24,000 nt of DNA from Clostridia bacterium. Lineage in GTDB: Bacteria; Bacillota; Clostridia; Lachnospirales; Lachnospiraceae. The position numbers were made by a program, and so were the translations under genes. The first letter of the stretch is position 1. The number at the start of each line of letters is the position of its first letter. The stretch is from the NCBI GenBank assembly GCA_910576325.1, contig CAJTIM010000034.1, forward strand, positions 9,942 to 33,941, written 5' to 3'. The notes below the pieces were generated by a model, which worked only from the letters and a program-made list of their open reading frames with translations, was not told the origin of the DNA and did not search any database. Of this stretch, positions 7,554-22,151 are shown one piece after another.

Positions 7554-8105
7554 TCATTTCTCCATCATATCATCTATTTTTTGAAGTAAGTCCCAATCGA
7601 CATTTTCAAGCCGTTGATCTAATTCCTCAATTAATTTAAATTTCTGTTGCTCAATTCCTGCGTCATACCCATTTATTTCACTATACTTTTTCATATACTG
7701 TGTAAGCCAATAATATTTATTATATAAGATAACCTCTAAAGGTTCCCTAGTTAATGCGATAACCTCGGTTTCTTTACAGTAAAACAACAAACAATAATTA
7801 TATATGGAATTGAGAATTTGATTCTCATATTCTTTTTTGATGCAATATCCTGTCTTGGATAACAATTCGTCCATATTATTTAATAATAATTTCATATTTT
7901 TTCGAGATCCCTCATGCATAACCTTGTCCAAACAACATGTTTTCCACTTCGAAATAAGAAAGCTCTTAAAGCATATAAATATTACCTTTTTTGAAATTAT
8001 GTTCCATGCATATTTTTGCATATGATTGCTGAATTTGCACTCACCTGGCACTTCTTCAAACCGAAATTTATGCTGATGTACCCCATAAATATAAAATGTA
8101 CTCAT
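7554..8105 (-). CDS. Hypothetical protein (orphan, AT-rich island); the N-terminal third is doubtful
   Basis: This is a 183-aa ORF in the AT-rich segment with no motif I recognise. It has only a weak SD (AGGAA about 13 nt upstream) and overlaps the upstream ORF by 38 nt. It may be the 3' part of a frameshifted single gene, or may really start at an internal Met (MHEGSRKNMKLLL...). Confidence 0.45.
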   Translation of the reverse strand: MSTFYIYGVHQHKFRFEEVPGECKFSNHMQKYAWNIISKKVIFICFKSFLISKWKTCCLDKVMHEGSRKNMKLLLNNMDELLSKTGYCIKKEYENQILNSIYNYCLLFYCKETEVIALTREPLEVILYNKYYWLTQYMKKYSEINGYDAGIEQQKFKLIEELDQRLENVDWDLLQKIDDMMEK

Positions 8106-8445
8106 TCATAGTTTCTATTCCTAAAGTTATATCATTCCATTTTGAAGGGACAACATTTACTGCTTTGATTATCGGTTCATATAGAATATTTACACGCTGA
8201 TTCATCTCTTCCAATCGTGATTTCATCCACGCTATATCATCAGCAGAAGCCGGCAAGTTCGTGCGGTTTTTATATATCTCAGTCCAATTACCGCAAAACC
8301 TCCCGTCTGATTCCAGAAAATTTACAGCCTCTGTTATAAAGTCATTCATTGACAAAAACATATTTTTGCCGGATATAACAACTAAAATATTCTGTTCTGA
8401 AGCCCCTGAGTTAAAACAAAGATTTCCAAAATCAAACGCAATCAT
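8068..8445 (-). CDS. Hypothetical protein (orphan, AT-rich island)
   Basis: This is a 125-aa ORF with a good SD (GAGGAGATTAGAGTGA then ATG). I recognise no family signature. Confidence 0.55.
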   Translation of the reverse strand: MIAFDFGNLCFNSGASEQNILVVISGKNMFLSMNDFITEAVNFLESDGRFCGNWTEIYKNRTNLPASADDIAWMKSRLEEMNQRVNILYEPIIKAVNVVPSKWNDITLGIETMNEYILYLWGTSA

Positions 8446-8942: not shown

Positions 8943-9821
8943 TCAATCAATCGGCTTCAAATAAAATCCTCCATAAAAGTCCTCCGATTTAAAGGTATTG
9001 ATCACCACATGAGGATCCGCCTTCCGCATCAGCTTCGCAATGTCCTGAATCTCGTAGCTTGATACTACCGTGTGCAAAAGACTGACCTTCTTTCCGCTGT
9101 AACCTCCTATCCCGTCTACCCGGGAAACGCCGTGGCGGTACTCCGCTACATAAGCTTCAATCACCGCATCCGCCTTTGTTGTGGTAATCTGCATGGTCAT
9201 CCGCTCATACCGATGGTAGAAGGAATCAATGGTCTTTGTGGAAATGAACTGGAACAATATGGAATATCCTGCATACTCCCAGCCAAACATACAGCCGAAA
9301 ATCGTAATCAATGTAGCATTAAATACAAAAACATAGCTCCAGATAGACTTCCCCTTTTTATTGGAAATATAAAGAGCCACAAAATCAATGCCCCCTGTGG
9401 AAGCATTCCCTTTCAGGGCAATAACGGTCATAATACCGTACAAAAATCCACCGAAAATCACATTCAGCAGAATATCCTCAAATAAAGGCTCAAAGCTCAG
9501 CACCCGCAGAAAGAAGCTGGCAAAGAAAACCTGCAAAAGAGAAAAGAAGGTAAACCGCTTACTAATGCTTTTGCTGCACATAATGGCTACCGGTATATTG
9601 AGAAGCAGCATTCCCAAAGATACGGAAAAGGAAACTCCAAAAAAGGTAGAGGTTATCTTCTCTATCAAAAACGCCACACCCGTAAAGCCGCTGGACAGCA
9701 GGTTAATGGGAACCATAAAAATCTGCATAACAGCCGCCTGCATAAAGCCTGCAAGTAAAACGCTTGCAAAAGTATAAGCAAAACGCACTTTATCATTATT
9801 TCTTATTTTCTGAAAATTCAT
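8943..9821 (-). CDS. YitT-family membrane protein (DUF161 membrane domain plus C-terminal DUF2179)
   Basis: The 292-aa protein has a typical YitT N-terminus (FAYTFASVLLAGFMQAAVMQIFMVPINLLSSGFTG), a GGIDFVALYISNK motif and a soluble C-terminal domain. Its ATG overlaps the cutC stop (ATGA at 9818-9821). Confidence 0.85.
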   Translation of the reverse strand: MNFQKIRNNDKVRFAYTFASVLLAGFMQAAVMQIFMVPINLLSSGFTGVAFLIEKITSTFFGVSFSVSLGMLLLNIPVAIMCSKSISKRFTFFSLLQVFFASFFLRVLSFEPLFEDILLNVIFGGFLYGIMTVIALKGNASTGGIDFVALYISNKKGKSIWSYVFVFNATLITIFGCMFGWEYAGYSILFQFISTKTIDSFYHRYERMTMQITTTKADAVIEAYVAEYRHGVSRVDGIGGYSGKKVSLLHTVVSSYEIQDIAKLMRKADPHVVINTFKSEDFYGGFYLKPID

Positions 9822-10558
9822 AAGGCATCAACCAGCTTCTTTACTAAATTTTTGTCCACAGCCTCATAGTCCTTTCTGTGAGGAGACTCCGCATATGCAT
9901 AGGAAACCTGCGGTCCTTCTGTAGTGGGATCGGTAAGCCATCCACGGCAGGAGCTGTGTACCTGACTGATTCCGGTACGCTCCATAAGCTCTGCGGCATT
10001 TCCTGCATTCATGCCGCTGCCGGCCAGAAGCTCGATTCTTTCCCCATATTCCTTTTGCAGCTTAGCCAAAAGCTCTATGCCGTCCACAGCCTTTTCCTGC
10101 CCGCCGCTGGTTAAAATGCGATCTATTCCAATATCAATCAGAATTTCAATAGCTTTGCAGGGATCTTGCACACAGTCAAAGGCACGGTGGAAGACTGCCT
10201 CTCCATGATGCTTCTTGATAATGCCCGTCATTTCCCGGGTCTGGTTTTCTTCTATCTCTCCGTTTTCATTGAGACAGCCAAAGGCAATGCCGTCGGCGCC
10301 GTTTTGAAGAAGAAGCTCGGCGTCGGCCTTCATAACCTCAAAGTCGGCAGCGCTGTAGCAGAAACCGGCTCCGCGGGGTCTGACCATAGCAATAACCTTC
10401 AGATCCGTATTCTTTTTTGTTAAAATGAGTGTTCCCAAAGACGGCGTTAAGCCTCCCAGGTACAGGGCGCTGTTCAGCTCAATGCGTTTGGCGCCTCCAT
10501 GATATGCCGCCAGTGCATCCTCATAGCCTCCGCAGCATATTTCCGCAACCTTTTCCAT
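9818..10558 (-). CDS. cutC: CutC-family protein (TIM-barrel protein annotated as copper homeostasis protein; true function unclear)
   Basis: The 246-aa protein starts MEKVAEICCGGYEDALAAYHGGAKRIELNSALYLGGLTPS, which is the characteristic CutC N-terminus, and its length fits the family. Confidence 0.85.
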   Translation of the reverse strand: MEKVAEICCGGYEDALAAYHGGAKRIELNSALYLGGLTPSLGTLILTKKNTDLKVIAMVRPRGAGFCYSAADFEVMKADAELLLQNGADGIAFGCLNENGEIEENQTREMTGIIKKHHGEAVFHRAFDCVQDPCKAIEILIDIGIDRILTSGGQEKAVDGIELLAKLQKEYGERIELLAGSGMNAGNAAELMERTGISQVHSSCRGWLTDPTTEGPQVSYAYAESPHRKDYEAVDKNLVKKLVDAL

Positions 10559-10588
10559 ATTTGTCCTCCATTCCAGTACCGTGATATC

Positions 10589-11680
10589 CTACCGAATCAT
10601 CAATGCAAATCCATGAGCCGGCCGGATGCAGTCCAGGATTAACTGCTCGCCTTCATTGATATGTCCCACATAATTGTAGTCATCACTGGCCTTAATCTCA
10701 TCCAGCACAATCATCAGCTCACCCGCATAATGCTTCAAGTTATCATTAACAATGATCACATCACCCTTCGTAAACACATCCTTATGATTCTCACGGGGAA
10801 CAATGCTTTCATTCTTATATTTTACCCTGGGAAAGCTGGATCTGACAACAAGTTCATTACAATCATCCCGGCTTGCATGAATATCACAGGTAATAAGCTC
10901 CCGTTCAATCTCGGAAATCCCTTCTTCCACATCCACCTTCATAGCCGGCTTGCTCAAGTCCGTCTCCGCCATGATTTTCAACTCTTCCTCACTGGCAAAA
11001 GCATTTCCAACCATAAAATCCGTACAAAGTCCCAGAGCACTTAAATGACGAAGCTGTAAATCAATCGGCAGATCCCGATGGATTTCCAAAGTCGGAAGTC
11101 CTTCATAGACCTCCCAAGGCCCATGCGTATTCTCCTCTCTGCTGGTCACAAAAGTCGCATTGGTCAAGCCCAAAGGCTGATACCGGCTGTTCAGCTCCTT
11201 ATAACGTTTCAACCCCATACCCGTGTTCCTCTGGGGATAAAAATTACTGCAAATACACATATTATTCCGGTCAGCGCCCTTCTCAATCATCAAATCCAGC
11301 GCCATAGAACAGGATGCATTGTATTCAATCAGAATCCCATAAGGATTTCTCGTAATCTGTATATCCTCAAATTCCCCAAAATGCCCGTCCAGGCGGATAA
11401 TATCCACACCCATCTGCGCAAAAACAGACAAGTCCATAGGCGCAGCCCCAAGTCTCTCAAACACCTGCGGATTCGTATCCACCGACACAATAAGCCCGCT
11501 CTCATGAGCCACCTTACAAAACTCCGTAAACTCATCCACAATCTTCTCCCGGCTCTCCTCCACCGACAAAAGACAAGTAAATACTCTCTGAAAGCCATAC
11601 CTTCCGGCCAGCTTCATATACTCATAACAAGCTTCCTTCGGTGCCCGCTCCGGATAAACGGAAATTCCCAGTCTCTTCAA
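10589..11680 (-). CDS. DUF871 / MupG-family protein (6-phospho-N-acetylmuramidase-type 6-phospho-glycosidase)
   Basis: The N-terminus KRLGISVYPERAPKEACYEYMKLAGRYGFQRVFTCLL and the ~360-aa length are typical of DUF871/MupG. The track start (GTG 11710) reads through the SD. I place the start at TTG 11680, 7 nt after GGAGG, which gives the family-typical MKRLGISVYP. Confidence 0.75.
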   Translation of the reverse strand: MKRLGISVYPERAPKEACYEYMKLAGRYGFQRVFTCLLSVEESREKIVDEFTEFCKVAHESGLIVSVDTNPQVFERLGAAPMDLSVFAQMGVDIIRLDGHFGEFEDIQITRNPYGILIEYNASCSMALDLMIEKGADRNNMCICSNFYPQRNTGMGLKRYKELNSRYQPLGLTNATFVTSREENTHGPWEVYEGLPTLEIHRDLPIDLQLRHLSALGLCTDFMVGNAFASEEELKIMAETDLSKPAMKVDVEEGISEIERELITCDIHASRDDCNELVVRSSFPRVKYKNESIVPRENHKDVFTKGDVIIVNDNLKHYAGELMIVLDEIKASDDYNYVGHINEGEQLILDCIRPAHGFALMIR

Positions 11681-11766
11681 TTCACTACCTCCATTCCAAT
11701 TGCGCAGCACCCCTAAAAATACACAAACACAAAATCAATCCGCACATTTTAAAGGATACTGCCGTT

Positions 11767-12888
11767 TCAGTTCCCTAACCCATCCATCAATCTATAAAAT
11801 GCATAGCCATAAATCTGCGCATTCTTTTCAATATCACAGATACGCATCCACTCATCCGGCATATGCCCAATCCCCTTCTGCCCCTTAAAGCTCGGCCCAA
11901 AAGGTACAATATTCTTCACCACCTTCGCATAACTGCCTCCGGTAGTCGTCACCGCGCTTCCATCCTCCTGCATAATCTCTTCATAAACATGCTCCAAAGT
12001 TTTCACCAAATACGTATCCTTATCAAAAAACACCGGGTCCAGATTCGAATCCAGCGACAAGGTCATATGAGGCGTACAAAGCTTCTCCAAAGCCTCCCGC
12101 ATCGTATCCAGAGAATAAGAAGCCGGATAACTGGAAACCAAAGTCAGTCCGCAGGTATCCCCCTCCTCAAAAAGCTCCACCTTCCGCACCTGATTCTTCC
12201 CAAACTCTTCATCCGCATAATCCACTCCAAGAGCAGACGACAAATCATTCTGATTCAAAACAAACCCATTCAAAAACCGAACCAGTTCCCCAAGCTCCGC
12301 CTTCGGCAGACTATACCGAAAAGCCGCCCTGCCGCGCTCCGCATAAATCACCGGATACTTACAGTCAGGAGTCCATCCCATCAAAGGATACTTGTGATTC
12401 TGAAAATACCACTTCATATCCTCCATTCCGGTCTCCTCATTCGTCCCAAAAATAATCTTCACCTTAATCGGAAACTCATACCCCAGATCCACAAGCGCCT
12501 TCAACCCATACAAACAGCAAAACATAGGCCCCTTATTATCCAAAACCCCCCTGGCATACAAAAAACCATCTTTCTCCGTACACACAAACGGATCCGTTTT
12601 CCACACCCCGTTCACATCCACCACATCCAGATGTCCCACACAGGCTATATACTCCTCCGTATCCGGCCCCCAGGAAGCAATCCCAATCTGATTCCCCACA
12701 TTCTCCGTCTCAAATCCAAGCCCTCTTGCAATCTCCAGAGCCTTATTCAGGCAATCCGTCACCCTAACCCCAAAAGGATGCTCCGGCGCAGCCGTATCCT
12801 GCCTGGAATCCATATTACAAATCGTCTTAATATCCCCCACCAAATCCGGAAGCAATTCTCCCACACGTTCAACAATTCTCTCCTTCAC
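11767..12888 (-). CDS. M20-family metallopeptidase (PepV-like dipeptidase)
   Basis: The protein has CVGHLDVVDV (His ligand), RGVLDNKGPM (Asp ligand) and FGTNEETGMEDM (Glu-Glu). It uses a GTG start 5 nt after AGGAGG. Confidence 0.8.
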   Translation of the reverse strand: MKERIVERVGELLPDLVGDIKTICNMDSRQDTAAPEHPFGVRVTDCLNKALEIARGLGFETENVGNQIGIASWGPDTEEYIACVGHLDVVDVNGVWKTDPFVCTEKDGFLYARGVLDNKGPMFCCLYGLKALVDLGYEFPIKVKIIFGTNEETGMEDMKWYFQNHKYPLMGWTPDCKYPVIYAERGRAAFRYSLPKAELGELVRFLNGFVLNQNDLSSALGVDYADEEFGKNQVRKVELFEEGDTCGLTLVSSYPASYSLDTMREALEKLCTPHMTLSLDSNLDPVFFDKDTYLVKTLEHVYEEIMQEDGSAVTTTGGSYAKVVKNIVPFGPSFKGQKGIGHMPDEWMRICDIEKNAQIYGYAFYRLMDGLGN

Positions 12889-13025
12889 AATAGCCTCCTA
12901 TTCCAGTTCCGTAATATCTATTACAACACACCCACATGAAATCAATTTCCAGTCACAAATGCACGTGCCTGTAAATCGATTTGTGCGTTGTAACAGATAC
13001 ACAATTCTTCTCAACAACCTACCGG

Positions 13026-13232
13026 GCTGTCGCAGAATCAGCCGGCAGGCTTTTCCGATATCCAGTGTCCGGCTATTCGCGCACACTCTGTCTGCTATGG
13101 ACGAACATTGCCTCATTCCGCACATCCTCCGCAAGCAACCACCAAGGCAATGTACGGTCAGAGCAGACAGAGTGTGCGTGAATCGTCCGAACACAGGATA
13201 TGGAAATGGCTGCCGGCTGATTCTGCGACAGC
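13026..13232. repeat. Long imperfect palindrome (~71-nt arms plus an inner stem), intergenic within the operon
   Basis: The left arm (13026-13096) is GCTGTCGCAGAATCAGCCGGCAGGCTTTTCCGATATCCAGTGTCCGGCTATTCGCGCACACTCTGTCTGCT. The reverse complement of the right arm (13162-13232) is GCTGTCGCAGAATCAGCCGGCAGCCATTTCCATATCCTGTGTTCGGACGATTCACGCACACTCTGTCTGCT. The outer 23 nt and inner 17 nt match perfectly. A further inner pair is ACATTGCC / GGCAATGT. Confidence 0.65.
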
Positions 13233-13247
13233 CTCACAACCTACCAC

Positions 13248-14201
13248 CTACTCCACAACAGGCGCCATCCTCACCCGCATATATTCCTCAAGCCACTCCT
13301 GATCCGCTTCTTTAAAACTACAATGCCCATCCTCTTCCCTGGTAACAAGATAAACAACCGGCTCCAACCCTTCCGCAGCCACACTAAACGAAAACCCTCC
13401 AATATTAGTAGCACATCCAAACTCCCCTTTACAGTTCATAGCCACCACCGAAAGATCCCCGGCCTCACCACGCTTCTCACGCAATCTCCGATCCAGATCC
13501 GTCACCGCCTTCTCACAAGCCTCCTGAGGCGACATCCCTTCCTTCATCAACCGCACAATCTCATAAGAAATACACCCTTTCATCAGGTCTTCTCCAAGCC
13601 CGGTAGCCGTAGCTCCGCCGACCTCAGAATCCGCATAAAATCCGGATCCTACAATCGGAGAATCCCCCACACGTCCGCTTCGCTTCATAAAAAGCCCGCT
13701 TGTACTGGTAGCTGCCGTCACCGTCCCGGAAGTATCCAGACAAACCATTCCCACCGTATCATGACCATCATAAGGTTTCAGCTCCTGATCCATCTCCTTC
13801 TTCCGCTTACGGTAAAAAGCCTTCGCCCTGTCCGTGAGCATTTCCTTCTCCTCAAACTGCATTTCCCGTGCGTACTTTTCCGCCCCCGCACCTACCAGAA
13901 CATTATTCACCTTTTCCTCACTGAGCTTCTTCGCAATACTGATGGGATTGGCAAAATCTTTAATCGCCCCCAGAGCGCCGACACTCATCGTATCCCCATC
14001 CATATAACCGGCATCAAGCTCCACAATCTGCTCCTCATTTGGCAGACCGCCGTAACCAACCGATTTATAATACGGAAAATCCTCCACCGCCTTAATAGCC
14101 GTCTCAATCGCCTTGCCGGAGGTCTCCCCCTTCTTCAGCATTTCATCCGCAAGCTCAATCCCTTCCTTGGCCATCCGCCAGGTCGCTATAATACCATACA
14201 T
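13248..14201 (-). CDS. Ntn-hydrolase of the asparaginase_2 family, glycosylasparaginase-like (HDT autoprocessing site)
   Basis: The 317-aa protein has the autoproteolysis/nucleophile motif YDGHDTVGMVCLD, followed by TSTSGLFMKRSGRVGDSPIVGSGFYAD and GGATATGLGEDLMK. His-Asp-Thr at the cleavage site is the pattern of glycosylasparaginases. Isoaspartyl peptidase/plant-type asparaginases usually have G-T at this position. Confidence 0.8.
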   Translation of the reverse strand: MYGIIATWRMAKEGIELADEMLKKGETSGKAIETAIKAVEDFPYYKSVGYGGLPNEEQIVELDAGYMDGDTMSVGALGAIKDFANPISIAKKLSEEKVNNVLVGAGAEKYAREMQFEEKEMLTDRAKAFYRKRKKEMDQELKPYDGHDTVGMVCLDTSGTVTAATSTSGLFMKRSGRVGDSPIVGSGFYADSEVGGATATGLGEDLMKGCISYEIVRLMKEGMSPQEACEKAVTDLDRRLREKRGEAGDLSVVAMNCKGEFGCATNIGGFSFSVAAEGLEPVVYLVTREEDGHCSFKEADQEWLEEYMRVRMAPVVE

Positions 14202-14335
14202 CTATATCACTCTCCTATTCCGTTCCGTAACATTCTTCCTGATACACCTTCATCAAATCATTTCCCGGCCGCAAATTCTTGCATCAGCACATTGATTTAT
14301 GCTCCCTGAAAATATCTCTGTTTCGGTTCCGCCGT

Positions 14336-15394
14336 TTATAATATACTTTCAAAAATCTCCCCGCTCATATCCTTCGCCAGCTCACAAACAAGCCGAATGC
14401 AAGCCTCCACATCATCCGTATGGATCATACTGTGATTCGTATGCATATACCGAATCGGAATCGAGAGCGTCATATTGATAACACCGTCAAACGCCTTATG
14501 AATATTCCCCGAATCCGTTCCGCCCTTGTTGAATACCGCATACTGATGGTCAATCCCATGCTTCCTGCAAATTCCTTCCACATACCGCACCAGTTTTCTG
14601 GGAGCAATGGAATTGGAATCAATCATAGACAGCACCACGCCCTTCCCCAGAGAGCAGATATTGTGATTGGCAGGCGTATCCCCGGCCAGTGTGGTATCAA
14701 TCGCAAATGCAATATCAGGGTGCACCCATTCCACCGCCGTTCTCGCTCCCCGAAGCCCCGGCTCCTCCTGAACGGTATTCGCCAGATACAGAGGCGTATG
14801 AACCTCATCCCGAAGCCGCTTAGCCGCTTCCAGCATAATATAATTTCCAATCCGGTCGTCAAATGCCTTGCAGGACACATATTTTGGATTCCGCATCACC
14901 TCAAAATGAGTCCAGGGCACTACCATATCTCCCACAGCAATCCCCAGAGAAAGAACCTCCTCCCGGTTCTCCACTCCCAGATCCAGATATATATCCTCCA
15001 TAGAAACCGTCTTGTTCCGAATCTCGGCAGGCAGCCCGTGTGTTGCCATACTCCCCATCAAAGCCGGATAAGACCCATTTTCCCTTGTGACAACCGTATA
15101 CCACTGTCCCAGAACAAGATGGCTCCACCAGCTCCCCACCGGCCGCAGCCTTAAAAAGCCCTGCTCGTCAATGGTCTCTACCATAAATCCAACCTCGTCC
15201 ATATGGGCGGCAATCATCATTTTCGGTCCCGGCCTGTCTTCACACTTTGCGGCAATGACGCTTCCAAGACCGTCCTTTCTGCAATTCAGGCCAAGGCCCC
15301 TGTACTCCTCCTCCAAAATACATCCAATCTCCTGCTCAAAGGAGGAAATACCCGGCGCTCCGCAAATCCGTTCCATTTTTTCCAAATCAACCAT
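14336..15394 (-). CDS. M42-family aminopeptidase (FrvX/YsdC/TET-like), canonical active site
   Basis: All five motifs are present: AAHMDEVGFMV, KAFDDRIGN, VQEEPGLRGA, AFAIDTT and IRYMHTNHSMIH. The track start (15463) is an upstream extension. I place the start at ATG 15394 (MVDLEKMERICGAPGISSFEQE), which overlaps the previous stop within ATGGTTGA. Confidence 0.85.
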   Translation of the reverse strand: MVDLEKMERICGAPGISSFEQEIGCILEEEYRGLGLNCRKDGLGSVIAAKCEDRPGPKMMIAAHMDEVGFMVETIDEQGFLRLRPVGSWWSHLVLGQWYTVVTRENGSYPALMGSMATHGLPAEIRNKTVSMEDIYLDLGVENREEVLSLGIAVGDMVVPWTHFEVMRNPKYVSCKAFDDRIGNYIMLEAAKRLRDEVHTPLYLANTVQEEPGLRGARTAVEWVHPDIAFAIDTTLAGDTPANHNICSLGKGVVLSMIDSNSIAPRKLVRYVEGICRKHGIDHQYAVFNKGGTDSGNIHKAFDGVINMTLSIPIRYMHTNHSMIHTDDVEACIRLVCELAKDMSGEIFESIL

Positions 15395-16412
15395 GCCCGT
15401 CACCCATTCCAAATCCCATAATTTTCTCCGAGTCCAAGGTACGCAGGTAAGAAGCCAATGCATCCGTCAGGGCATCCGCATCGCTGACCTTACAGATTTC
15501 ATTTGCGCTTCCCAGATGGTCCACAGCAATGCCGACGCTGATACTGGGGGTTCCCTTTAAGGTCTTATGAATAAAGGACCCGTCATTTCCCAGGAGGCCG
15601 AAATACTCCTTTGTCTCCGTCTGCCCGGCAAAATCCCGAAGAAGCGCCTGGGCGGGAAGCATCTGGCGATCATAATAGCCCAGAATCACCTTATCTCCCA
15701 ACTGAACCTTCCTTTTTGCCGTATCAAATGCCGTAAGCGCAATGGCCGCGTCCGGCCGTATCACATAGGTCGCTGTCTTAGTCCCCCGGTATCCGATGAC
15801 AGACTGGGCAACGCCCCCTGCTGCCAAATGAAAATCAAGCTCCGTATCCTTCAATTTTTCCAAAAGCTCCAGGATAACTTCATTCAGCACCCGCGGAAAC
15901 AGGGCCTTTGCAATCACAGTCCCGTCCTGCTCTCCAAAAGTGCCTGCATAGCCTGCCAGGTCTCCCGGATGAATCCGCTCCTTTGCCTCATCGCCGCTTA
16001 AACCGCAGGTGATAAAGAGATCCTCCGCGCTCTTGATCTCGCAGGAGTCCTCCAGAGCCTTTTTGTCCATGCCGATGACGCCGTCAATAAAAGTGTCCTC
16101 TCTGGTCAGAATCCGCACGCGCTGATGCAGCAGGGAACTAAGGGCAATACTCTCCAGAGGAATAAACGCCAGGGTTCCGTCCTTTTTCACCTCGGAAATC
16201 ATCAGTCCCACTTCATCCAGAGGGGAGGCAATCATAAGCGTTGCCGCCTTAGGGTTTTTTGATTTTTTTACGGCAAATACCGAGCCGAGGCGGTCATACT
16301 TTAACTCATCGCACAGAGGCTTACAGCTCTCCCGGAGAATTTGGGCCGCCGCCTGCTCCCCGCTGCTGACTCCAAAGCTGTTGCATAAGGTTTTCAATCT
16401 TTCTGTATTCAT
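15387..16412 (-). CDS. M42-fold paralogue with a degenerate metal/catalytic site (likely pseudo-peptidase)
   Basis: The 341-aa protein aligns to the M42 layout, but ASPLDEVGLMI replaces AHMDEVG (His lost), KALFPRVLN replaces K.FDDR.G (Asp lost) and AQSVIGYRGT replaces QEE.GLRGA (Glu-Glu lost). An AAGGAG SD precedes ATG 16412. Confidence 0.7.
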   Translation of the reverse strand: MNTERLKTLCNSFGVSSGEQAAAQILRESCKPLCDELKYDRLGSVFAVKKSKNPKAATLMIASPLDEVGLMISEVKKDGTLAFIPLESIALSSLLHQRVRILTREDTFIDGVIGMDKKALEDSCEIKSAEDLFITCGLSGDEAKERIHPGDLAGYAGTFGEQDGTVIAKALFPRVLNEVILELLEKLKDTELDFHLAAGGVAQSVIGYRGTKTATYVIRPDAAIALTAFDTAKRKVQLGDKVILGYYDRQMLPAQALLRDFAGQTETKEYFGLLGNDGSFIHKTLKGTPSISVGIAVDHLGSANEICKVSDADALTDALASYLRTLDSEKIMGFGMGDGHG

Positions 16413-16428
16413 ATTTCTCCTTTTAAAA

Positions 16429-16501
16429 GGGCTGCCGCAAAATAAGACAGCAGACTTTTCCGATTATCGGAAATGGCTGATGGCCTATTTTGCAACAGCC
16501 C
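16429..16501 (-). terminator. Long composite hairpin followed by a U run, between the GrdB-like gene and the M42-like gene (terminator, attenuator or processing site)
   Basis: On the minus strand, GGGCUGUUGCAAAAUA pairs with UAUUUUGCGGCAGCCC, giving 16 bp including two G-U pairs that would be A-C mismatches on the plus strand. The inner hairpin is TTTCCGAT-A-ATCGGAAA (16457-16473). The stem is followed by UUUU and then directly by the SD: AAAAGGAGAAATATG. Confidence 0.5.
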
Positions 16502-16521
16502 CTTTCACCACATTTCTATTC

Positions 16522-17046
16522 TTAATAGCAGACACGCTTCTTGATATCTTCCAAATCAGAAGAGGATTCAACCGTTCCCTTAATCAGATCGCAGAGATCC
16601 GAAAAGCTGTCATTTAATCCGGTTCCGCCCTTTTTCGGCATCTTTACAATAGGCGTCTTGTCCTTGTAAAGCTCAATGGTCTCTCCGTTTTCCACTGACA
16701 TCATGGCACAGGACTTGATTTCCGTTTTCTCCAGGATAGAGGTTGAAATCATAGCTGCCATTTTCGCGTAGTCAGGGAAGTTAAAACAGGGACCGCATAC
16801 CACGAAGTCCGGTTTTACCTTCTTTACCATAGCCGTCATCTTTGTCACAACCTCTTCCTGGTTGTTCAGAAAGTATTCGTTGCCGCAGTAGAGGGTAGCC
16901 GCTACCTTGGCTCCAATCTTCTCCAGATGGGATTCCATCATTAAGGCTGAGCCGATTCCGCCTTTTACGGCCGTCAGTCCCACGTTGGGATTGGACTTCC
17001 CTCCGGCTCCTGCCAGACCCTGATCAAAAATTAATACGATATTCAT
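16522..17046 (-). CDS. Stand-alone protein resembling the N-terminal ~170 aa of glycine/sarcosine/betaine/proline reductase component B (GrdB/PrdB family)
   Basis: MNIVLIFDQGLAGAGGKSNPNVGLTAVKGGIGSALMMESHLEKIGAKVAATLYCGNEYFLNNQEEVVTKMTAMVKKVKPDFVVCGPCFNFPDY follows the GrdB N-terminal pattern as I remember it (H.INQF.AG.GGEE...GP.FNAGRY). The protein stops at TAA after 174 aa, well before the GrdB selenocysteine region. The track start at 17109 reads through the leader. The true start is ATG 17046, 6 nt after AGGAGG. Confidence 0.65.
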   Translation of the reverse strand: MNIVLIFDQGLAGAGGKSNPNVGLTAVKGGIGSALMMESHLEKIGAKVAATLYCGNEYFLNNQEEVVTKMTAMVKKVKPDFVVCGPCFNFPDYAKMAAMISTSILEKTEIKSCAMMSVENGETIELYKDKTPIVKMPKKGGTGLNDSFSDLCDLIKGTVESSSDLEDIKKRVCY

Positions 17047-17052
17047 ACTCTG

Positions 17053-17189
17053 CCTCCTATTTATAGTCGCTGCGCGACAGCACTGAAGGGTAAAGTCACT
17101 TCGACACACTTGTAGTGAGAGGAACTTTTATTCGAAAGGACACTCATAAAAGTTCCTCTCGTGTGTCTTTGCGACTTTACCGTCCAACC
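17053..17189 (-). repeat. Structured intergenic element, copy 1 (candidate 5' leader RNA of the GrdB-like cistron, or a MITE-like repeat)
   Basis: It is about 89% identical to copy 2. On the minus strand the folds are P1 UAAAGUC/GACUUUA, P2 GACACAC/GUGUGUC, a perfect 15-bp helix GAGAGGAACUUUUAU/AUAAAAGUUCCUCUC with loop GAGUGUCCUUUCGA, and then the mini-hairpin GUCGC-GCA-GCGAC directly before UAUAAAUAGGAGG and the ATG. Confidence 0.6.
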
Positions 17190-17208
17190 GATAATACTGT
17201 TTTTTGTC

Positions 17209-17231
17209 AGGGCTGCCCTCACGACAGCCCT
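17209..17231. other. Short GC-rich hairpin just downstream of the EIIC stop
   Basis: The plus strand reads AGGGCTGCC-CTCAC-GACAGCCCT. On the minus strand this forms a 9-bp stem (one G-U pair) with a GUGAG loop. The T run lies on the plus-strand side (TTCCTTTTTT), not downstream on the minus strand, so its role as a terminator for the EIIC transcript is doubtful. Confidence 0.35.
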
Positions 17232-17257
17232 TTCCTTTTTTATGTAGCTATATTTTC

Positions 17258-18610
17258 TCAGTCAAACTCCAGGTCGTCAAAGGACAAATCATCCAATTCG
17301 TCAGTCTTATTGCTCGTCTTGCTCTCATCGTCCACGTAGCGCTTGTCAAGCAGCTTGAAGAACGGATAGTAGATAAGAATATCCACCGCAAGCTGCACAA
17401 TCTGGACAACAGAACCCATGAAGGAACCGGTCACCAGGAATCCCGAGAAGATGATGGGACAGGTCCAGGGAAGCTGCACGCCCAAGGTAATCGGCATAAT
17501 ACCCGTTACCGTAGCCAGATATCCGATAATCGTATTTGCAACCGGCGCAAGGATGAAAGGAATTGCCATCAGCGGGTTCAATACAATCGGAAGACCGAAA
17601 ATCAACGGCTCGTTGATACCGAAGATACCGGCCGGCAGGGACAGCTTTCCTAAAGTCTTCATACGGTTGGATTTTCCAAGGAATGCCATCATAATAACAA
17701 GACCCAGGGTCGAGCCGCCGCCTCCGAAGTTGCAGAAGAAATCGGAGAAGCCTGCCGTAAAGATGTTGGTCATCTCAAGTCCTGCCTGAGCCGCCTCGTA
17801 GTTCTCCACAGTCAGTACCTTATGGATGGGGCTGAAAATGGTGTTAGTTACAGCCGGTCCGTTGATACCGAAGAACCAGAACAGCGTGGACAAGAACTGA
17901 TAGATTACCTCAAATCCGGACAATCTGCCAAGTCCCACCAGAGGCGCCTGGAGTACCCGGTAAATAAAGTAATGTACATACTCAAATGAAGTATGGTCGA
18001 AAATAATACCTACTACAAAGAATACGGTCATCGCAATTGCGGAAGGAATCAGGGAAGCAAAGGATTCCATAACCGCAGGCGGCACGCCGTCGGGCATCTT
18101 AATCACAAGCTTTTTGCGGATGGCCCATGCGTAAATCTCAACCGACAGAATCGCCGTAATCATGGCCAGGAACATTCCGGCCGTTCCCAGGAAGGTAAAC
18201 TGGAATCCGCTGAAGGATGCGGCCTCTGCTGCGCCCTCCACTTCCACTAATGTCTTCTGGGGCGTAATAATCAAAAAGCATACCAGTGCTACCACAGCAC
18301 CGCCGATTCGATTCTCCAGTCCCTTTTCTCTTGCATAGCAGTAACCGATACTCAATACACCAAGAAGCGCCACGCAGTCAAAGGCGATAGCGGATACTCT
18401 TCCCAGGTATGCATCCCAGCCGGCCCCGAAGATGGAGGTCATCATATTCAGGAAGCCCTCCAGGGGGAAGTTGGCAATCAGCAGGAAAATGGAACCCACA
18501 ATGGTGATGGGAACCGTAATCAGAAAACCGTCGCGGATCGCAGACAGTACCTTGTTCTTGGACAGCGCGTTTGCAACGGGCATCAAGAACTTCTCAAGTT
18601 TTTGCATCAT
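17258..18610 (-). CDS. PTS EIIC component, lactose/cellobiose (chitobiose) family
   Basis: The 450-aa polytopic protein has the N-terminus MMQKLEKFLMPVANALSKNKVLSAIRDGFLITVPITIVGSIFLLIANFP, typical of CelB/ChbC-type EIIC. It also has an unusual acidic C-terminal tail. Confidence 0.9.
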   Translation of the reverse strand: MMQKLEKFLMPVANALSKNKVLSAIRDGFLITVPITIVGSIFLLIANFPLEGFLNMMTSIFGAGWDAYLGRVSAIAFDCVALLGVLSIGYCYAREKGLENRIGGAVVALVCFLIITPQKTLVEVEGAAEAASFSGFQFTFLGTAGMFLAMITAILSVEIYAWAIRKKLVIKMPDGVPPAVMESFASLIPSAIAMTVFFVVGIIFDHTSFEYVHYFIYRVLQAPLVGLGRLSGFEVIYQFLSTLFWFFGINGPAVTNTIFSPIHKVLTVENYEAAQAGLEMTNIFTAGFSDFFCNFGGGGSTLGLVIMMAFLGKSNRMKTLGKLSLPAGIFGINEPLIFGLPIVLNPLMAIPFILAPVANTIIGYLATVTGIMPITLGVQLPWTCPIIFSGFLVTGSFMGSVVQIVQLAVDILIYYPFFKLLDKRYVDDESKTSNKTDELDDLSFDDLEFD

Positions 18611-18613
18611 AAC

Positions 18614-18937
18614 TTATTTCCCTCTACTTTCTTTGTAAAGCTTCATTGCTTTCTTTAGTACTCTTTCACCGTCCATGTTGCCATAGTCGGTGCTGTCGAT
18701 CACAGCAACGATGTGATCCTGGCCGTAACGCTCGTTTACCTTATCAAACAGGTGCTTTACCTGAGGTCCCAAGAGAATTACTTCCGGATTGAACTCACTG
18801 ACAACATCGCTCATATGTGTGTCTGAGAATGCCTTGATCTCAATGGGAAGCTCATGGGCGTCCGCCGTTTTCTGCATTTTGCTTGCAAGAAGGCTGGTTG
18901 ACATTCCTGCATTACAGAATAAATAGAATCGCTTCAT
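18614..18937 (-). CDS. PTS EIIB component, cellobiose type
   Basis: MKRFYLFCNAGMSTSLLASKMQ contains the active-site Cys in the LFCNAGMSTS loop, and the ~105-aa size fits. The track start at 18943 (MTMKRF) lies only 3 nt after AGGAGG, so the second ATG (18937) is preferred. Confidence 0.9.
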   Translation of the reverse strand: MKRFYLFCNAGMSTSLLASKMQKTADAHELPIEIKAFSDTHMSDVVSEFNPEVILLGPQVKHLFDKVNERYGQDHIVAVIDSTDYGNMDGERVLKKAMKLYKESRGK

Positions 18938-18962
18938 GGTCATTTTCCTCCTTTCTGTCTCT

Positions 18963-19265
18963 TTACTTTTTATAAAGCTCTATCAGCTCGGAAGCCAGTA
19001 ACTTAATTGTCTCCGCAGCCATCAGCTGATCCTCCGCATGCATCAGAAGCAGGCATACTTCTGTCTTTTCGCCGCTTGCTTCCTTGGTGATTAATTCCGC
19101 ATGCTCCTTGTGTCCGTTCACATAGCAGGAATCGCCATGCTTCATTGCCTCTTCCGCCTTCTCAAAGTCGCCCTTCTTGGCAGCTTCCAGTGCGGAGATG
19201 TAGTCGCTCTTTGCCTCTCCTACCGCAGAGATGATCTTAAAACAGATCAGTTCCATTTCTTCCAT
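18963..19265 (-). CDS. PTS EIIA component, lactose/cellobiose family
   Basis: The 100-aa helical protein has LLLMHAEDQLMAAE (the phosphorylatable His context HA.D.LM) and an N-terminal ISAVGEAKS motif. Confidence 0.9.
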   Translation of the reverse strand: MEEMELICFKIISAVGEAKSDYISALEAAKKGDFEKAEEAMKHGDSCYVNGHKEHAELITKEASGEKTEVCLLLMHAEDQLMAAETIKLLASELIELYKK

Positions 19266-19297
19266 AAATCCCGTCCTCCATTCCAGTTCTGTATGAA

Positions 19298-19858
19298 TTA
19301 TTTATTGTCGATTACCTTACTGCCGGCCCAGATGTCATGCGCCGCTTTTCCGTCGCGGTATGCAAGCCACACAGACACTATAAATACGCCAAACAGCAGA
19401 TAATTCAGCGCCTTTCCCGCTGCGCCCAGGGTCAGCATGGTAAGCATCTGTACCGCATACTGGCCGGTGAGCAGAAAGGCTCCCTCCAAAAGCATCACTC
19501 CCGCAAGCTGTCTCACGGCAAGACGGCCCGCCGGCAGGGGATTGTTGTCCTCCCCCACGATGCGAAGGTTCATAAGTCTTTTCCCAAGGGTCTGCCCTTT
19601 CCACACCCACATGGGAATCACATAGTAGTAAACGGCTCCGAATACCAGGCCCAAAAATCCTGCAAGCCATCCGTAGGGGGCATCAAAAAGGGTTAAATCC
19701 GTATTGATAACTACCTCTCCTGTGAGCATATTCCACAAAAGCCCTACCGGAATCACGCTGAAAGCCGAACCAAGATATCCGTCAAGAAGATAGGCAAATC
19801 CTCTTCGGCTCCACGGGGCCGGTACATAAACGGGTTCAGACTTCTTTTTTCCCTTCAT
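19298..19858 (-). CDS. RDD-family membrane protein
   Basis: The 186-aa protein has the N-terminal WSRRGFAYLLDGYL (RDD-family R..A...D pattern), three predicted hydrophobic segments and a conserved GQTLGKRLMNLRIV. It has a strong SD (AGGAGGTTGAA then ATG). Confidence 0.8.
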   Translation of the reverse strand: MKGKKKSEPVYVPAPWSRRGFAYLLDGYLGSAFSVIPVGLLWNMLTGEVVINTDLTLFDAPYGWLAGFLGLVFGAVYYYVIPMWVWKGQTLGKRLMNLRIVGEDNNPLPAGRLAVRQLAGVMLLEGAFLLTGQYAVQMLTMLTLGAAGKALNYLLFGVFIVSVWLAYRDGKAAHDIWAGSKVIDNK

Positions 19859-19863
19859 TTCAA

Positions 19864-19999
19864 CCTCCTATTTAAAGTCGCTGCGCGACAGCTCTAAAGG
19901 GTAAAGTCACTTCGATGCACCTGTAATGAGAGAAACTTTCATTCGAAAGGACACTCATGAAAGTTCCTCTCGTGCATCTTTGCGACTTTATCATCCAGC
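19864..19999 (-). repeat. Structured intergenic element, copy 2 (candidate 5' leader RNA of the first operon cistron, or a MITE-like repeat)
   Basis: The architecture matches copy 1. P2 is GAUGCAC/GUGCAUC, a double compensatory change relative to copy 1. The long helix is GAGAGGAACUUUCAU/AUGAAAGUUUCUCUC, with one compensatory pair and one G-U that would be an A-C mismatch on the plus strand. It ends GUCGCGCAGCGACUUUAAAUAGGAGGUUGAA and then the ATG. Confidence 0.6.
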
Positions 20000-20040
20000 A
20001 ACAAATCTTTTTCAAAAACACTTGACATTTCTTAGCTGGA

Positions 20041-21945
20041 CTATTCTATCAATTCTACAAAGGCTTTGGCTGTTTTCGCCTCCCGGATTCTGGACAGAAG
20101 AAGCGTGTCGTCGCAGATATTCCCGAACCAGTCAAAGAAAATCTTTAAAAGCTCCTTCTCATCATCCCGGATAGCCAGAAGCAGCACCAGATGAACCTGG
20201 TAATCTCCCCACTGAACCGGCTTTTTCAGAATGGCAATGCTCATGGTAGACTGAATGGCCGAGTAGTTCAGCGCATGGGGAATGGCATAGCCGTAGCTGA
20301 ATGAGGTGTACGCCATCTTCTCCCGGTCAAAGGTGGATTTCTTAAAGGTTTCGTCCACCCGGCCGCCCTCATACATCCGGTCGCACATATGGGTGATAAC
20401 TTCCTCATAGGTGTCGCAGTCCAGATTGTAATAGTAGTAATCTTCCAGAATCAGACACTTGATAAAGTTATTAAACTCCGTTTTGTAATGGCGCTTATCC
20501 AGGTCCGTAATAGCCTTGAATATCTTATACTCATCACTGGTATTCACAAACATGCTGATGACAATCGTAGGTATATCCAGCTTGTGGGTCAGCGGTATAG
20601 TAGAGATAATCAAATCCGGGTTCAGGCTTTCTATCGCCGGCGCCTCGTAGTAATTCAATATGGTATCAATGACGATCCGATCTCCAAAACGCTCCAGTAT
20701 CTTATCGCTGCATGCCCCCGACATGGTGTTGCTGTTGGGCTGAATCAAAACCACATGATAGTAATATTTGATGTTCAGCCGGTCATAAGCCGCGCCCAGG
20801 TGAATGGCCAGGAAGCCAATCTCATCCTCCGAAACCGAGGTCTCCATATATTCCTCGATGATATGCCCGACGAACACGCTCATCTCAAATACCATCGGAT
20901 AGGTCTTTTTGATTTCCGGCAGACAGATATTGGAAACAACCGCTCCCAGCTGTATCCGCTCCAGAAGATTCTGAAGGTGCAGTACCAGACCGTCCTTAAA
21001 GAGCATATCCGCCGAAAAATCAATGTCATACCTCTGCCGGGCCATGCTTACGATTTTCAGCATCAGCTCCTCTGCCTGTACCAGATAATCTTCCTTCTCA
21101 AACAGGGTGCTTCTCTGCCTTCCGATCAGCAGATTTGCAAATAAGACAACCTCATTCTCATTCAGCTCAAAGGAAAGTGTTGCTGTCACCCTTGTGAAAA
21201 ACTCCATCGCAATCTTATATTCCGGAGTGTCCCTTATTTCACAGCGGTAACGGTTCGTCTCCACATAGTTGTAGTTCATCATTCTCTGAATGGACACGCC
21301 TACGTGTATCATGAGCATGGGGAAGGTTTCCTCCCGCACCCGGTAACTGTATTTCTCCAGGATTTCTTCCAGGATATTTTTTACCTTTATCAGATCAAAA
21401 TTGGGGAAAAGCTCATCAATTTTATTCAGGTTGATGAAGTTTCCTTTGGTCTCATTGGCAAGTAAGTCCTTGTAAACAAACCGTTTGCTTTCCTCGCTCC
21501 CTTTTAGATAAATGTGGCTGCCTGTTTTGACCAACTCCACGCCGTCGTATTTTTCCAGCATTTCGGAAATCTTTTTCATATCATTTTTGATGGTAAATTC
21601 ACTTACGTAAATGTCATACTGGAGATCAAAAATGTTTAATTTCCGTTTGTTTAAAAGCAGTTTTTCGATGATGTATTTGCATCGTTCCTCGGAGGTCTGG
21701 GGGATATGCTCCCTTTGCTCCAAATCGCTTTCTTCCGAAACATCCTCATTGATCCGGTAGCCATAGCGCACGCTGGATTCTATAATGCCCTTGTAGGTCT
21801 TTCCCAACTGCTCCATGTCGCTGCGGATGGTCCGGTCCGAAACGCTGAGAATCGTTGACAGCTCCTTCCCTGTGATCCAATCCTTTTTCTCTTTTAAAAT
21901 TTGAAGAATTTTTTTCTGTCTCATTTGCATGGCTTTATTATACAT
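20041..21945 (-). CDS. PRD-domain transcriptional regulator of the LicR/MtlR/CelR type (HTH, PRD x2, EIIB-like, EIIA-like)
   Basis: There is an N-terminal winged-HTH region (KKILQILKEKKDWITGKELSTILSVSDRTIRSDMEQL), central PRD-like repeats and a C-terminal EIIA(Mtl/Fru)-like domain (SFSYGYAIPHALNYSAIQSTMSIAILKKPVQWGDYQVHLVLLLAI). The track start at GTG 21969 reads through the SD. ATG 21945 (MYNKAMQMRQKK) follows AAAGGAGGTGAGTTT. Confidence 0.85.
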   Translation of the reverse strand: MYNKAMQMRQKKILQILKEKKDWITGKELSTILSVSDRTIRSDMEQLGKTYKGIIESSVRYGYRINEDVSEESDLEQREHIPQTSEERCKYIIEKLLLNKRKLNIFDLQYDIYVSEFTIKNDMKKISEMLEKYDGVELVKTGSHIYLKGSEESKRFVYKDLLANETKGNFINLNKIDELFPNFDLIKVKNILEEILEKYSYRVREETFPMLMIHVGVSIQRMMNYNYVETNRYRCEIRDTPEYKIAMEFFTRVTATLSFELNENEVVLFANLLIGRQRSTLFEKEDYLVQAEELMLKIVSMARQRYDIDFSADMLFKDGLVLHLQNLLERIQLGAVVSNICLPEIKKTYPMVFEMSVFVGHIIEEYMETSVSEDEIGFLAIHLGAAYDRLNIKYYYHVVLIQPNSNTMSGACSDKILERFGDRIVIDTILNYYEAPAIESLNPDLIISTIPLTHKLDIPTIVISMFVNTSDEYKIFKAITDLDKRHYKTEFNNFIKCLILEDYYYYNLDCDTYEEVITHMCDRMYEGGRVDETFKKSTFDREKMAYTSFSYGYAIPHALNYSAIQSTMSIAILKKPVQWGDYQVHLVLLLAIRDDEKELLKIFFDWFGNICDDTLLLSRIREAKTAKAFVELIE

Positions 21946-22151
21946 AAACTCACCTCCTTTATTTTCCACATAATTTCCTAGCTGTTAGGAAAAAGTACGT
22001 GTCATTTTATATAACCTGTACATTGTAGCATGGGTTTGGAGGTTTCTCTACGTAAAAAACGACTATGCTGCGGATAATTTTTTATTTTCAGTTGTATATA
22101 CTTAGTGATATACTAAAGGATATCCGCCATCTTTAACCATTAGGAGATTTT

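Follow-up and report, generated by a model that had tools for sequence, protein, structure and literature searches.

A probable enlarged ega-type system for the salvage of asparagine-linked N-acetylglucosamine in a mouse-gut Lachnospiraceae bacterium

The 24,000-nucleotide stretch of DNA analysed here (the window; contig CAJTIM010000034.1, positions 9,942 to 33,941) comes from a Lachnospiraceae bacterium of the mouse gut and carries thirteen minus-strand genes that run in a single direction and span positions 8943-21969. In the order of transcription, they encode a LicR/MtlR-type PRD activator, an RDD-family membrane protein, enzymes EIIA, EIIB and EIIC of a phosphotransferase system (PTS), a GrdB-like protein, two M42-fold proteins (M42a and M42b), an N-terminal nucleophile (Ntn) hydrolase, an M20 dipeptidase, a GH170 (DUF871) protein, a CutC-family protein and a YitT-family membrane protein. 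We consider it probable that the cluster represents the ega system of Enterococcus faecalis in an enlarged form of clostridial type, which would provide PTS-dependent salvage, in the cytoplasm, of the N-acetylglucosamine (GlcNAc) stub that remains linked to asparagine in degraded N-glycoproteins. GlcNAc-Asn and short glycopeptides are end products of the degradation of host and dietary N-glycoproteins in the gut, and an ega-like PTS route appears to be widespread beyond the enterococci, in Clostridia, Erysipelotrichia, Peptoniphilaceae, Coriobacteriia and Lactobacillales.

A first-pass annotation, made from the DNA letters, had described the block as a candidate for PTS-dependent catabolism of a compound that joins a sugar to an amino acid. 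That description holds, with an Asn-linked GlcNAc system as its best reading. All thirteen of its head-to-tail genes are present, and every one of its family calls was confirmed by the Pfam and NCBIfam profile searches with which we assigned the window proteins to families. Its account of the layout needs adjustment in two respects. The block, placed at 9818-21945, is real but reaches position 8943, the end of yitT. The genes, described as separated by short gaps or overlaps, do overlap at the two places indicated, where the start of the M42b gene overlaps the stop of the M42a gene by 8 nt (ATGGTTGA, 15387-15394) and cutC overlaps yitT in ATGA (9818-9821), but there are also longer gaps between the regulator and RDD genes (182 nt), the EIIC and GrdB-like genes (211 nt), the M42b and Ntn genes (134 nt), and the Ntn and M20 genes (359 nt).

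The cluster is conserved over a wide phylogenetic range. It is found on metagenome contigs with protein identities of 96-100%, and the Ntn protein has 95-99% identity with proteins of Lachnospiraceae metagenome-assembled genomes and 93% identity with its counterpart in 'bacterium 1XD21-13', which has the complete gene set. One genome scan with an alignment of the Ntn protein gave 80 loci with 10-kb flanks, against which the 13 window proteins were compared by tblastn; the counts given below refer to these loci. Homologues were found for CutC in 49 loci, EIIC in 47, the M20 dipeptidase in 44 (adjoining Ntn), EIIB in 40, EIIA and the GrdB-like protein in 38 each, the PRD regulator in 30 (heading the locus), YitT in 22 (usually as the last gene of the block), the RDD protein in 19 (among the PTS genes, as also in Anaerococcus), M42b in 17, M42a in 16 and DUF871 in 14. 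Nearly all of the counted genes lie on the same strand as the Ntn gene and at most 6 kb from it. The recurrent order, with optional members in brackets, is regulator-(RDD)-EIIA-EIIB-EIIC-GrdB-like-(M42a-M42b)-Ntn-M20-(DUF871)-CutC-YitT, and it is seen in Clostridium, Hungatella, Lachnospiraceae, Erysipelotrichaceae, Abiotrophia, Granulicatella and Coriobacteriia. The full set of thirteen genes occurs only in the two closest relatives among the 80 loci (L001 and L059), and a Bulleidia locus (L003) has all genes except DUF871. A search anchored on the GrdB-like protein added an Anaerococcus locus with the order Reg-Ntn-EIIA-RDD-EIIB-EIIC-GrdB-M42-M42-M20-DUF7916 and a metagenome contig (L090) in which GH170-CutC-Ntn-M20 is divergent from EIIB-EIIC-GrdB. 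A GntR regulator near Ntn is typical of the lactic-acid-bacterial versions. That gene content, strand and order all recur beside Ntn in dozens of genomes is more than chance, and this supplies the recurrence in relatives that the first-pass annotation had named as a check on its proposal.

The PTS genes encode EIIA (18963-19265; Pfam PTS_IIA, 112 bits) and EIIB (18614-18943; Pfam PTS_IIB) of the lactose/cellobiose (Lac/Cel) family, and an EIIC of the lactose/cellobiose/chitobiose family (17258-18610; Pfam PTS_EIIC; TIGR00410, 400 bits). These proteins are 40%, 45% and 44% identical, respectively, to their ega-type counterparts in Enterococcus. Because E. faecalis is not among the 80 loci, the megaplasmid loci of Enterococcus gilvus and E. 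raffinosus were used as stand-ins; their order, GntR-Sapep-glycosylasparaginase-EIIB-EIIC-EIIA, is the ega layout, and identities between the window proteins and the Enterococcus proteins from loci so arranged are 37-55%. In Latilactobacillus curvatus, the order is Ntn-GntR-GrdB-like-EIIC-Sapep.

A different possible scenario is that the PTS belongs to a plain operon of the chb or cel type, which would import N,N'-diacetylchitobiose (or cellobiose), with the GH170 protein cleaving the 6'-phosphate form and with the Ntn, peptidase and CutC genes as mere neighbours. EIIC aligns with a Bacillus cereus PTS IIC component deposited as cellobiose-specific (PDB 3QNQ, 328 bits), which we take to be the diacetylchitobiose transporter ChbC. 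Moreover, the chb operon of Lacticaseibacillus paracasei is built on the combination of GH170 and a Cel-type PTS, and DUF871 is also found within the CELO2 operon of B. coagulans. However, EIIC, EIIB and EIIA are linked to the glycosylasparaginase gene in 38-47 of the 80 loci, most of which have no GH170 gene; the chb partner DUF3284 (ChbD) has no match by Pfam in any of the 13 proteins; and the homologous PTS of Enterococcus has been attributed to the transport of GlcNAc-Asn. An operon for plain disaccharides is therefore an unlikely explanation of the cluster.

The Ntn protein (13248-14201; Pfam Asparaginase_2, PF01112, 217.6 bits) is central to the proposal, and to judge from its sequence it is a cytoplasmic glycosylasparaginase-type enzyme similar to EgaG and AsnA2 rather than an isoaspartyl peptidase. 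In a search of PDB, it matched the Flavobacterium glycosylasparaginase structures with 181 bits (E = 3e-52), compared with at most 125 bits for isoaspartyl peptidases and plant-type asparaginases. Its motif GHDTVGM, which the first-pass annotation had rightly taken as a sign of a glycosylasparaginase, contains the autoprocessing site H147-D148-T149, which is invariant in our alignment of the family (A1), the Flavobacterium enzyme included. Residues W8, R177, D180, T200 and G201 are likewise invariant and align with the Flavobacterium chain. The conserved elements include a Trp near the N-terminus, an Arg-x-x-Asp (GRVGDSP) and TG.GE, which have roles in substrate binding in the human and Flavobacterium structures. 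In the alignment with the crystallised Flavobacterium chain, residue 4 corresponds to residue 7 of that chain; the protein thus begins too close to the enzyme core for a signal peptide to be present, and therefore acts in the cytoplasm. The Ntn protein is 55% identical to the E. gilvus enzyme, and homologues with 95% identity are already named glycosylasparaginase in NCBI sources.

It might be argued instead that the block serves the salvage of beta-aspartyl (isoaspartyl) peptides, with the Ntn protein as an isoaspartyl peptidase that works with the M42 and M20 peptidases next to an unrelated PTS. Three peptidase-fold proteins are indeed present, and the only NCBIfam match of the Ntn protein is a beta-aspartyl-peptidase model; however, the score of 119 bits is far under the cutoff of 567. 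The preference for glycosylasparaginases in the PDB search, the invariance of the HDT site and the Trp near the N-terminus, and the conserved linkage to PTS and GlcNAc-related genes all oppose this scenario, which we regard as very improbable. With regard to the products of the reaction, an aspartate-ammonia-lyase-like gene (Lyase_1 and FumaraseC_C domains) is placed after M20 in five loci (L021, L027, L028, L030 and L035), and a malic enzyme gene lies upstream in four of these (L027, L028, L030 and L035). These neighbours fit aspartate as a product and suggest a drain from aspartate through fumarate and malate to pyruvate.

The GH170 protein (10589-11710; MupG_N 234 bits, MupG_C 107 bits) is a putative 6-phospho-beta-glycosidase. 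DUF871 corresponds to CAZy family GH170, of which MupG is the founding member (PMC6262408), and in 2026 a Cel-type PTS and the GH170 protein ChbE were reported to be required in L. paracasei for the use of N,N'-diacetylchitobiose; ChbE is proposed to cleave 6'-phospho-diacetylchitobiose and is 26% identical to MupG (PMC12791066). By sequence similarity, the window protein appears to belong with a group represented by B. cereus 1X7F (262 bits, 40% identity) and not with the group of E. faecalis 2P0O (71 bits, 25% identity). Similarly, identity among the locus-linked copies, and between them and 1X7F, is 34-52%, compared with only ~25-30% for 2P0O. DUF871 accompanies Ntn loci at five or more different positions, which argues for repeated functional recruitment and not accidental adjacency. 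The first-pass annotation had also offered a muropeptide-like compound as the substrate, and although MupG does cleave a PTS-imported disaccharide of N-acetylmuramic acid 6-phosphate and GlcNAc (MurNAc-6P-GlcNAc), a pathway with MurNAc-GlcNAc(-peptide) imported by the PTS, DUF871 in the role of MupG and stem peptides trimmed by the peptidases can hardly be entertained, because neither a MurQ etherase nor a MurP-type (glucose-family) PTS was matched among the window proteins by Pfam, the PTS is of the Lac/Cel type, the DUF871 protein groups with 1X7F, and a glycosylasparaginase has no role in muropeptide breakdown.

In Anaerococcus (L088/L089, 13824-18513), an operon of PRD regulator, EIIA, EIIB, a 127-aa open reading frame (ORF), GH170 and EIIC is situated directly downstream of an ega-type operon. 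Here, the two modules that the window has in fused form occur naturally side by side.

The two M42 genes encode one degenerate and one intact protein, as the first-pass annotation had recognized. M42b (14336-15394; Pfam Peptidase_M42, 302 bits) retains the full ligand set H, D, E-E, D, H, comprising five metal ligands and the catalytic Glu, as expected of a TET-type aminopeptidase. It matches PDB 1VHE, which we take to be Bacillus subtilis YsdC, with 260 bits, and its best NCBIfam matches are the Escherichia coli-type aminopeptidase models PRK09961 and PRK09864, each under cutoff. M42a (15387-16412; Pfam Peptidase_M42, 123 bits) has P, F, S-V, T, G at the equivalent positions; by its sequence, it has the M42 fold but could not be an active metallopeptidase of the M42 type. 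A degenerate copy directly before an intact one is also found in Bulleidia, Erysipelothrix, Abiotrophia and Sarcina (pairs in L003, L027, L042-L044, L063 and L069). Because the degenerate copy is kept beside the intact one across distant genera, it appears to be a maintained pseudo-enzyme, and its most plausible place is in a TET-like hetero-oligomer, as a subunit for structure or specificity. A search of the literature on M42 proteins in a PTS context found nothing relevant. The E. coli PTS operons frv, sgc and ypd carry the M42 proteins FrvX, SgcX and YpdE and so, like the window, embed M42-fold genes in PTS sugar operons; unlike the window, they have other PTS families and no glycosylasparaginase, and they are not known to have a dead/active M42 pair.

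The M20 protein (11767-12888; TIGR01887, 281.7 bits, cutoff 207.95) is a Sapep/PepV-type dipeptidase with a shortened lid, ~37% identical to Sapep of the E. gilvus and E. raffinosus loci. Its alignment with PepV (1LFW) falls into two parts and leaves out PepV residues ~199-314, corresponding to the lid, such that ~100 lid residues are missing while the motifs of the catalytic domain are retained. The M20 proteins of the Ntn-M20-CutC loci L005, L011, L019 and L022 are likewise short (373-383 aa), compared with annotated lengths of 433 aa for Sapep of E. gilvus and E. raffinosus, and 443-455 aa by ORF calls for two further Enterococcus loci. It is a matter of speculation that the smaller lid might admit a bulky glycosylated dipeptide.

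Of all the links in these loci, the adjacency of Ntn and CutC is the most widely conserved, with CutC on the same strand and at most 6 kb from Ntn in 45 of the 80 loci. The link is retained in Erysipelotrichaceae, in a unit of no more than Ntn-M20-CutC among unrelated neighbours, and it is also found in a Bifidobacteriaceae locus, in Microbulbifer (Gammaproteobacteria) and in Bacteroidota, namely as GH20-Ntn-CutC in Chryseobacterium, as Ntn-CutC-GH2 in Fulvitalea, and with GH92, ROK and nagB around Ntn-CutC in Hymenobacter (loci with CutC contexts are L077, L079, L083, L086, L092 and L095-L099). The Bacteroidota Ntn proteins have a twin-arginine-type signal sequence and the CutC proteins have no signal, which would place the action of CutC in the cytoplasm, at a point after the amidase. 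In a sample of annotated plasmids and chromids anchored on CutC, its neighbours were GH20, ROK and nagB genes (Kozakia), a BadF/BadG-type ATPase behind a TonB receptor (Asticcacaulis and Pseudoalteromonas), a peptide ATP-binding cassette transporter with an aminopeptidase, an alpha-L-fucosidase and ROK (Alkalihalophilus), and a Man-PTS with a SIS isomerase (Listeria). We take the BadF/BadG-type ATPase to be of the GlcNAc-kinase type. Two other cases in this sample had no GlcNAc-type link.

The CutC protein of the window (9818-10558; Pfam CutC, 192.6 bits) is a TIM-barrel protein that scores 163.6 bits with the E. coli-type copper-homeostasis model of NCBIfam and so does not reach its equivalog cutoff of 311. 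In this protein and in 35 of 55 aligned homologues, and in most copies linked to Ntn, Asn stands in place of the second Cys of the proposed Cu(I) site, whose Cys pair is C31 and C52 in human CUTC (3IWP). Conserved elements of the family are E, R-ELxxxxxGG-TPS, RPR, HRAFD, LTSG and GSG. The genomic contexts and the sequence together suggest that CutC is an enzyme of GlcNAc-related catabolism rather than of copper homeostasis, and most likely it acts on a GlcNAc-derived product in the cytoplasm. We found no paper that links CutC with glycosylasparaginase; the one trace in the literature search was an indirect, STRING-type link in Xanthomonas.

CutC is one of four conserved accessory parts of the locus, together with the GrdB-like, RDD and YitT proteins. 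The first-pass annotation had left the RDD, GrdB-like and CutC members without a role, and this can now be amended insofar as all three, and YitT as well, recur in the locus. The RDD protein (19298-19858; Pfam RDD, 68 bits) is small and, like YitT/DUF2179 at the end of the block (8943-9821; Pfam), a membrane protein. The GrdB-like protein (16522-17046) belongs to a family without selenocysteine (NF041545, GrdB_like_no_Se; 230.6 bits, cutoff 175). Its gene is always 3' of the EIIC gene and follows it directly in 38 of the 80 loci. An AlphaFold2 model of the protein has a three-layer alpha/beta fold (predicted local distance difference test score, 92) without an informative structural neighbour in PDB, and no solved homologue of the protein was found. 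The conserved motifs are D-Q-x-x-A-G-x-G-G-K, YCG, CGP and PKKGG. A thioredoxin-like CGPC redox motif was considered and rejected, since among 37 locus-derived homologues the second Cys is under the 60% consensus threshold. In four lactic-acid-bacterial loci (L054, L064, L065 and L087), EIIC is accompanied by the GrdB-like, Ntn and M20 genes, and no EIIA or EIIB gene lies within the searched flanks. These loci raise the question of the role of the GrdB-like protein in transport, and an accessory role in transport is as plausible as that of the annotated 'oxidoreductase'. The regulator (20041-21945, with an ORF that reaches a GTG at 21969) has HTH_11/Mga and two PRD domains and a C-terminal EIIA_2 domain by Pfam.

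From these identities, a pathway can be proposed. The Lac/Cel EIIABC would import GlcNAc-Asn, as suggested by homology with ega, and would phosphorylate the sugar at O6, the position expected from the behaviour of the PTS family. Further substrates of import may be GlcNAc-beta-1,4-GlcNAc(-Asn) or Asn(GlcNAc)-peptides of short length, although uptake of chitobiosyl-Asn and glycopeptides is speculative. If peptides enter, the M42 aminopeptidase, probably a hetero-oligomer of active M42b and dead M42a, and the short-lid PepV-type dipeptidase would strip the residues that flank Asn and thereby free the alpha-amino and alpha-carboxyl groups that glycosylasparaginases reportedly need. With a disaccharide substrate, the GH170 protein would remove 6-phospho-GlcNAc, by analogy with ChbE and MupG. 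The glycosylasparaginase would then split the GlcNAc-Asn amide to give aspartate, ammonia and GlcNAc or GlcNAc 6-phosphate (GlcNAc-6P), an activity known from its EgaG, AsnA2 and Flavobacterium homologues, and GlcNAc-6P would enter the NagA/NagB route, encoded elsewhere in the genome. The LicR-type PRD activator would couple expression of the cluster to the phosphorylation state of the PTS. We infer the GlcNAc-Asn core substrate, its phosphorylation by the PTS and the 6-phospho-glycosidase role of GH170 from analogous systems, while the M42 hetero-oligomer and any chemistry of CutC, YitT, RDD and the GrdB-like protein are speculative.

A more far-reaching version of this scheme, which we advance only as a tentative possibility, is that, with the optional genes, the ega core becomes a complete route by which N-glycopeptide stubs are processed in the cytoplasm. 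Here the PTS would take up Asn(GlcNAc)-peptides and/or chitobiosyl-Asn, the dead/active M42 hetero-oligomer and the short-lid PepV would trim them, GH170 would remove 6-phospho-GlcNAc, and CutC would be no copper protein but a so far unrecognised enzyme that processes GlcNAc or GlcNAc-amine(-6P) after glycosylasparaginase and hexosaminidases have acted. An implication, if this is true, is that the route would provide the first biochemical context for CutC, human CUTC included, and for the PTS-embedded M42 proteins FrvX, SgcX and YpdE. In any case, the enlarged locus leads to testable hypotheses for CutC, the PTS-associated M42 'peptidase/cellulase', the GrdB-like no-Se protein and YitT, and for GH170 enzymes it points to a second physiological context. 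CutC and the dead/active M42 pair offer the most valuable leads.

Several points weigh against the assignment of the cluster to an enlarged ega system. EIIC is about equally similar to 3QNQ and to the ega-type EIIC, such that substrate specificity is not readable from the sequence. The ega regulator is a GntR protein (LSA1692-subfamily), whereas the window has the LicR/MtlR-type PRD activator and no GntR gene. DUF871 and the M42 pair, each limited to ~14-17 of the 80 loci, are optional modules, not core. The peptidase roles are unproven, as the pepV gene of L. casei is dispensable for growth on 6'FN-Asn. More generally, the function proposed for this organism derives from comparison of sequences, and the details of the EgaG substrate, including whether it is phosphorylated, come from citing papers. 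Finally, a long hairpin could split transcription between Ntn and M20.

The hairpin is near-perfect, ~210 nt in length, and is located at 13015-13245 within the 359-nt gap between the two genes (12889-13247). It consists of nested inverted repeats of 32 nt (94%) and 46 nt (83%), the sequence GGTAGGTTG stands at each end of the insert, and the predicted RNA fold has an energy of -143.8 kcal/mol (z = -13.5). L059 shares the insert, whereas L001, L002, L003 and L061 lack it and have an Ntn-M20 gap of ~7 nt; positions 12894-12990 of the window are similar to the leader found 5' of Ntn in relatives. It could be an insert resembling a miniature inverted-repeat transposable element (MITE), or an element for RNA processing or stability within the operon. 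A multicopy MITE was considered and set aside, given that an exact 24-mer from the insert was found in a metagenome collection only at this same locus; mobility is unproven. Rfam had no RNA family match anywhere in the window. Scans of the window for promoters and terminators gave the same counts as shuffled sequence and are thus uninformative.

Some additional features were noted in and around these loci. DUF7916 proteins (~300-317 aa) occur at the distal end, after CutC, YitT or M20, in L008, L034, L042, L043, L049 and L088, and M81 (MlrC-like) and M3 peptidases recur in L018, L019, L021, L022 and L051. Beyond yitT, the window contains two minus-strand ORFs (183 and 125 aa; 7554-8445) of low GC content (~0.35) that have no Pfam match. 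The region looks like a small foreign insertion, because the ORF map of L001 has no ORF at the equivalent spot between yitT and the gene for a UvrD-like helicase. That UvrD/REP-type helicase (3917-7261; 1114 aa) is unusual in that its helicase domains begin only at about residue 494, and the N-terminal ~490 residues have no Pfam match.

How does the cluster compare with characterized systems? The first-pass annotation knew of no pathway with this composition, a statement that the literature has overtaken: a PTS combined with a glycosylasparaginase for a glyco-amino acid has been known since 2023, and GH170 combined with a Cel-type PTS since 2026. The closest relative is the ega locus of E. faecalis, which is described as comprising a GntR regulator, a dipeptidase, EgaG, Lac/Cel EIIB and EIIC, and a GrdB-like 'putative oxidoreductase' (PMC11549559), and whose catabolic and transport enzymes are, according to the title of the original study, needed for the use of glycoprotein-derived GlcNAc-Asn (Combret et al. 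2023, Res Microbiol 175:104169, PMID 37977353). On this description, ega and the window have in common the cytoplasmic glycosylasparaginase, co-directional Lac/Cel EIIB and EIIC genes, the GrdB-like protein and a Sapep/PepV dipeptidase. They differ in gene order and in the shortened lid of the window M20 protein, and ega as described is without the M42 pair, GH170, CutC, YitT and RDD, all of which the window has.

The other comparable systems each share a smaller part of the window. In the alf-2 operon of L. casei/paracasei, an intracellular AsnA2, genetically linked to PepV, converts a glyco-amino acid of the N-glycan core (fucosyl-GlcNAc-Asn) to GlcNAc and aspartate (PMC6960285). This operon has the major facilitator superfamily permease AlfH, the alpha-L-fucosidase AlfC, the ROK kinase SugK, AsdA and GntR, and no PTS, whereas the window lacks these and has only the equivalents of AsnA2 and PepV; phosphorylation by the PTS in the window would make an alf-2-type kinase unnecessary. 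The L. paracasei chb operon resembles the window in the combination of a cellobiose-type PTS (ChbABC) with a GH170/DUF871 hydrolase, but it includes the DUF3284 protein ChbD and has no glycosylasparaginase, peptidases or CutC (PMC12791066). The Staphylococcus aureus operon mupG-murQ-murP-murR also has a DUF871/GH170 6-phospho-glycosidase, which acts there on a PTS-imported, 6-phosphorylated beta-1,4 amino-sugar disaccharide; the operon differs in its PTS family, in its need for the MurQ etherase and in its peptidoglycan substrate (PMC6262408).

In relation to these systems, the new elements are the pairing of dead and active M42 proteins conserved across genera, the recruitment of GH170 to Ntn loci in several different positions, and the adjacency of CutC and glycosylasparaginase across phyla (Firmicutes, Actinobacteria, Bacteroidota and Gammaproteobacteria). 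Compared with ega itself, the cluster of the window is distinguished by another regulator and by four or five conserved accessory modules.

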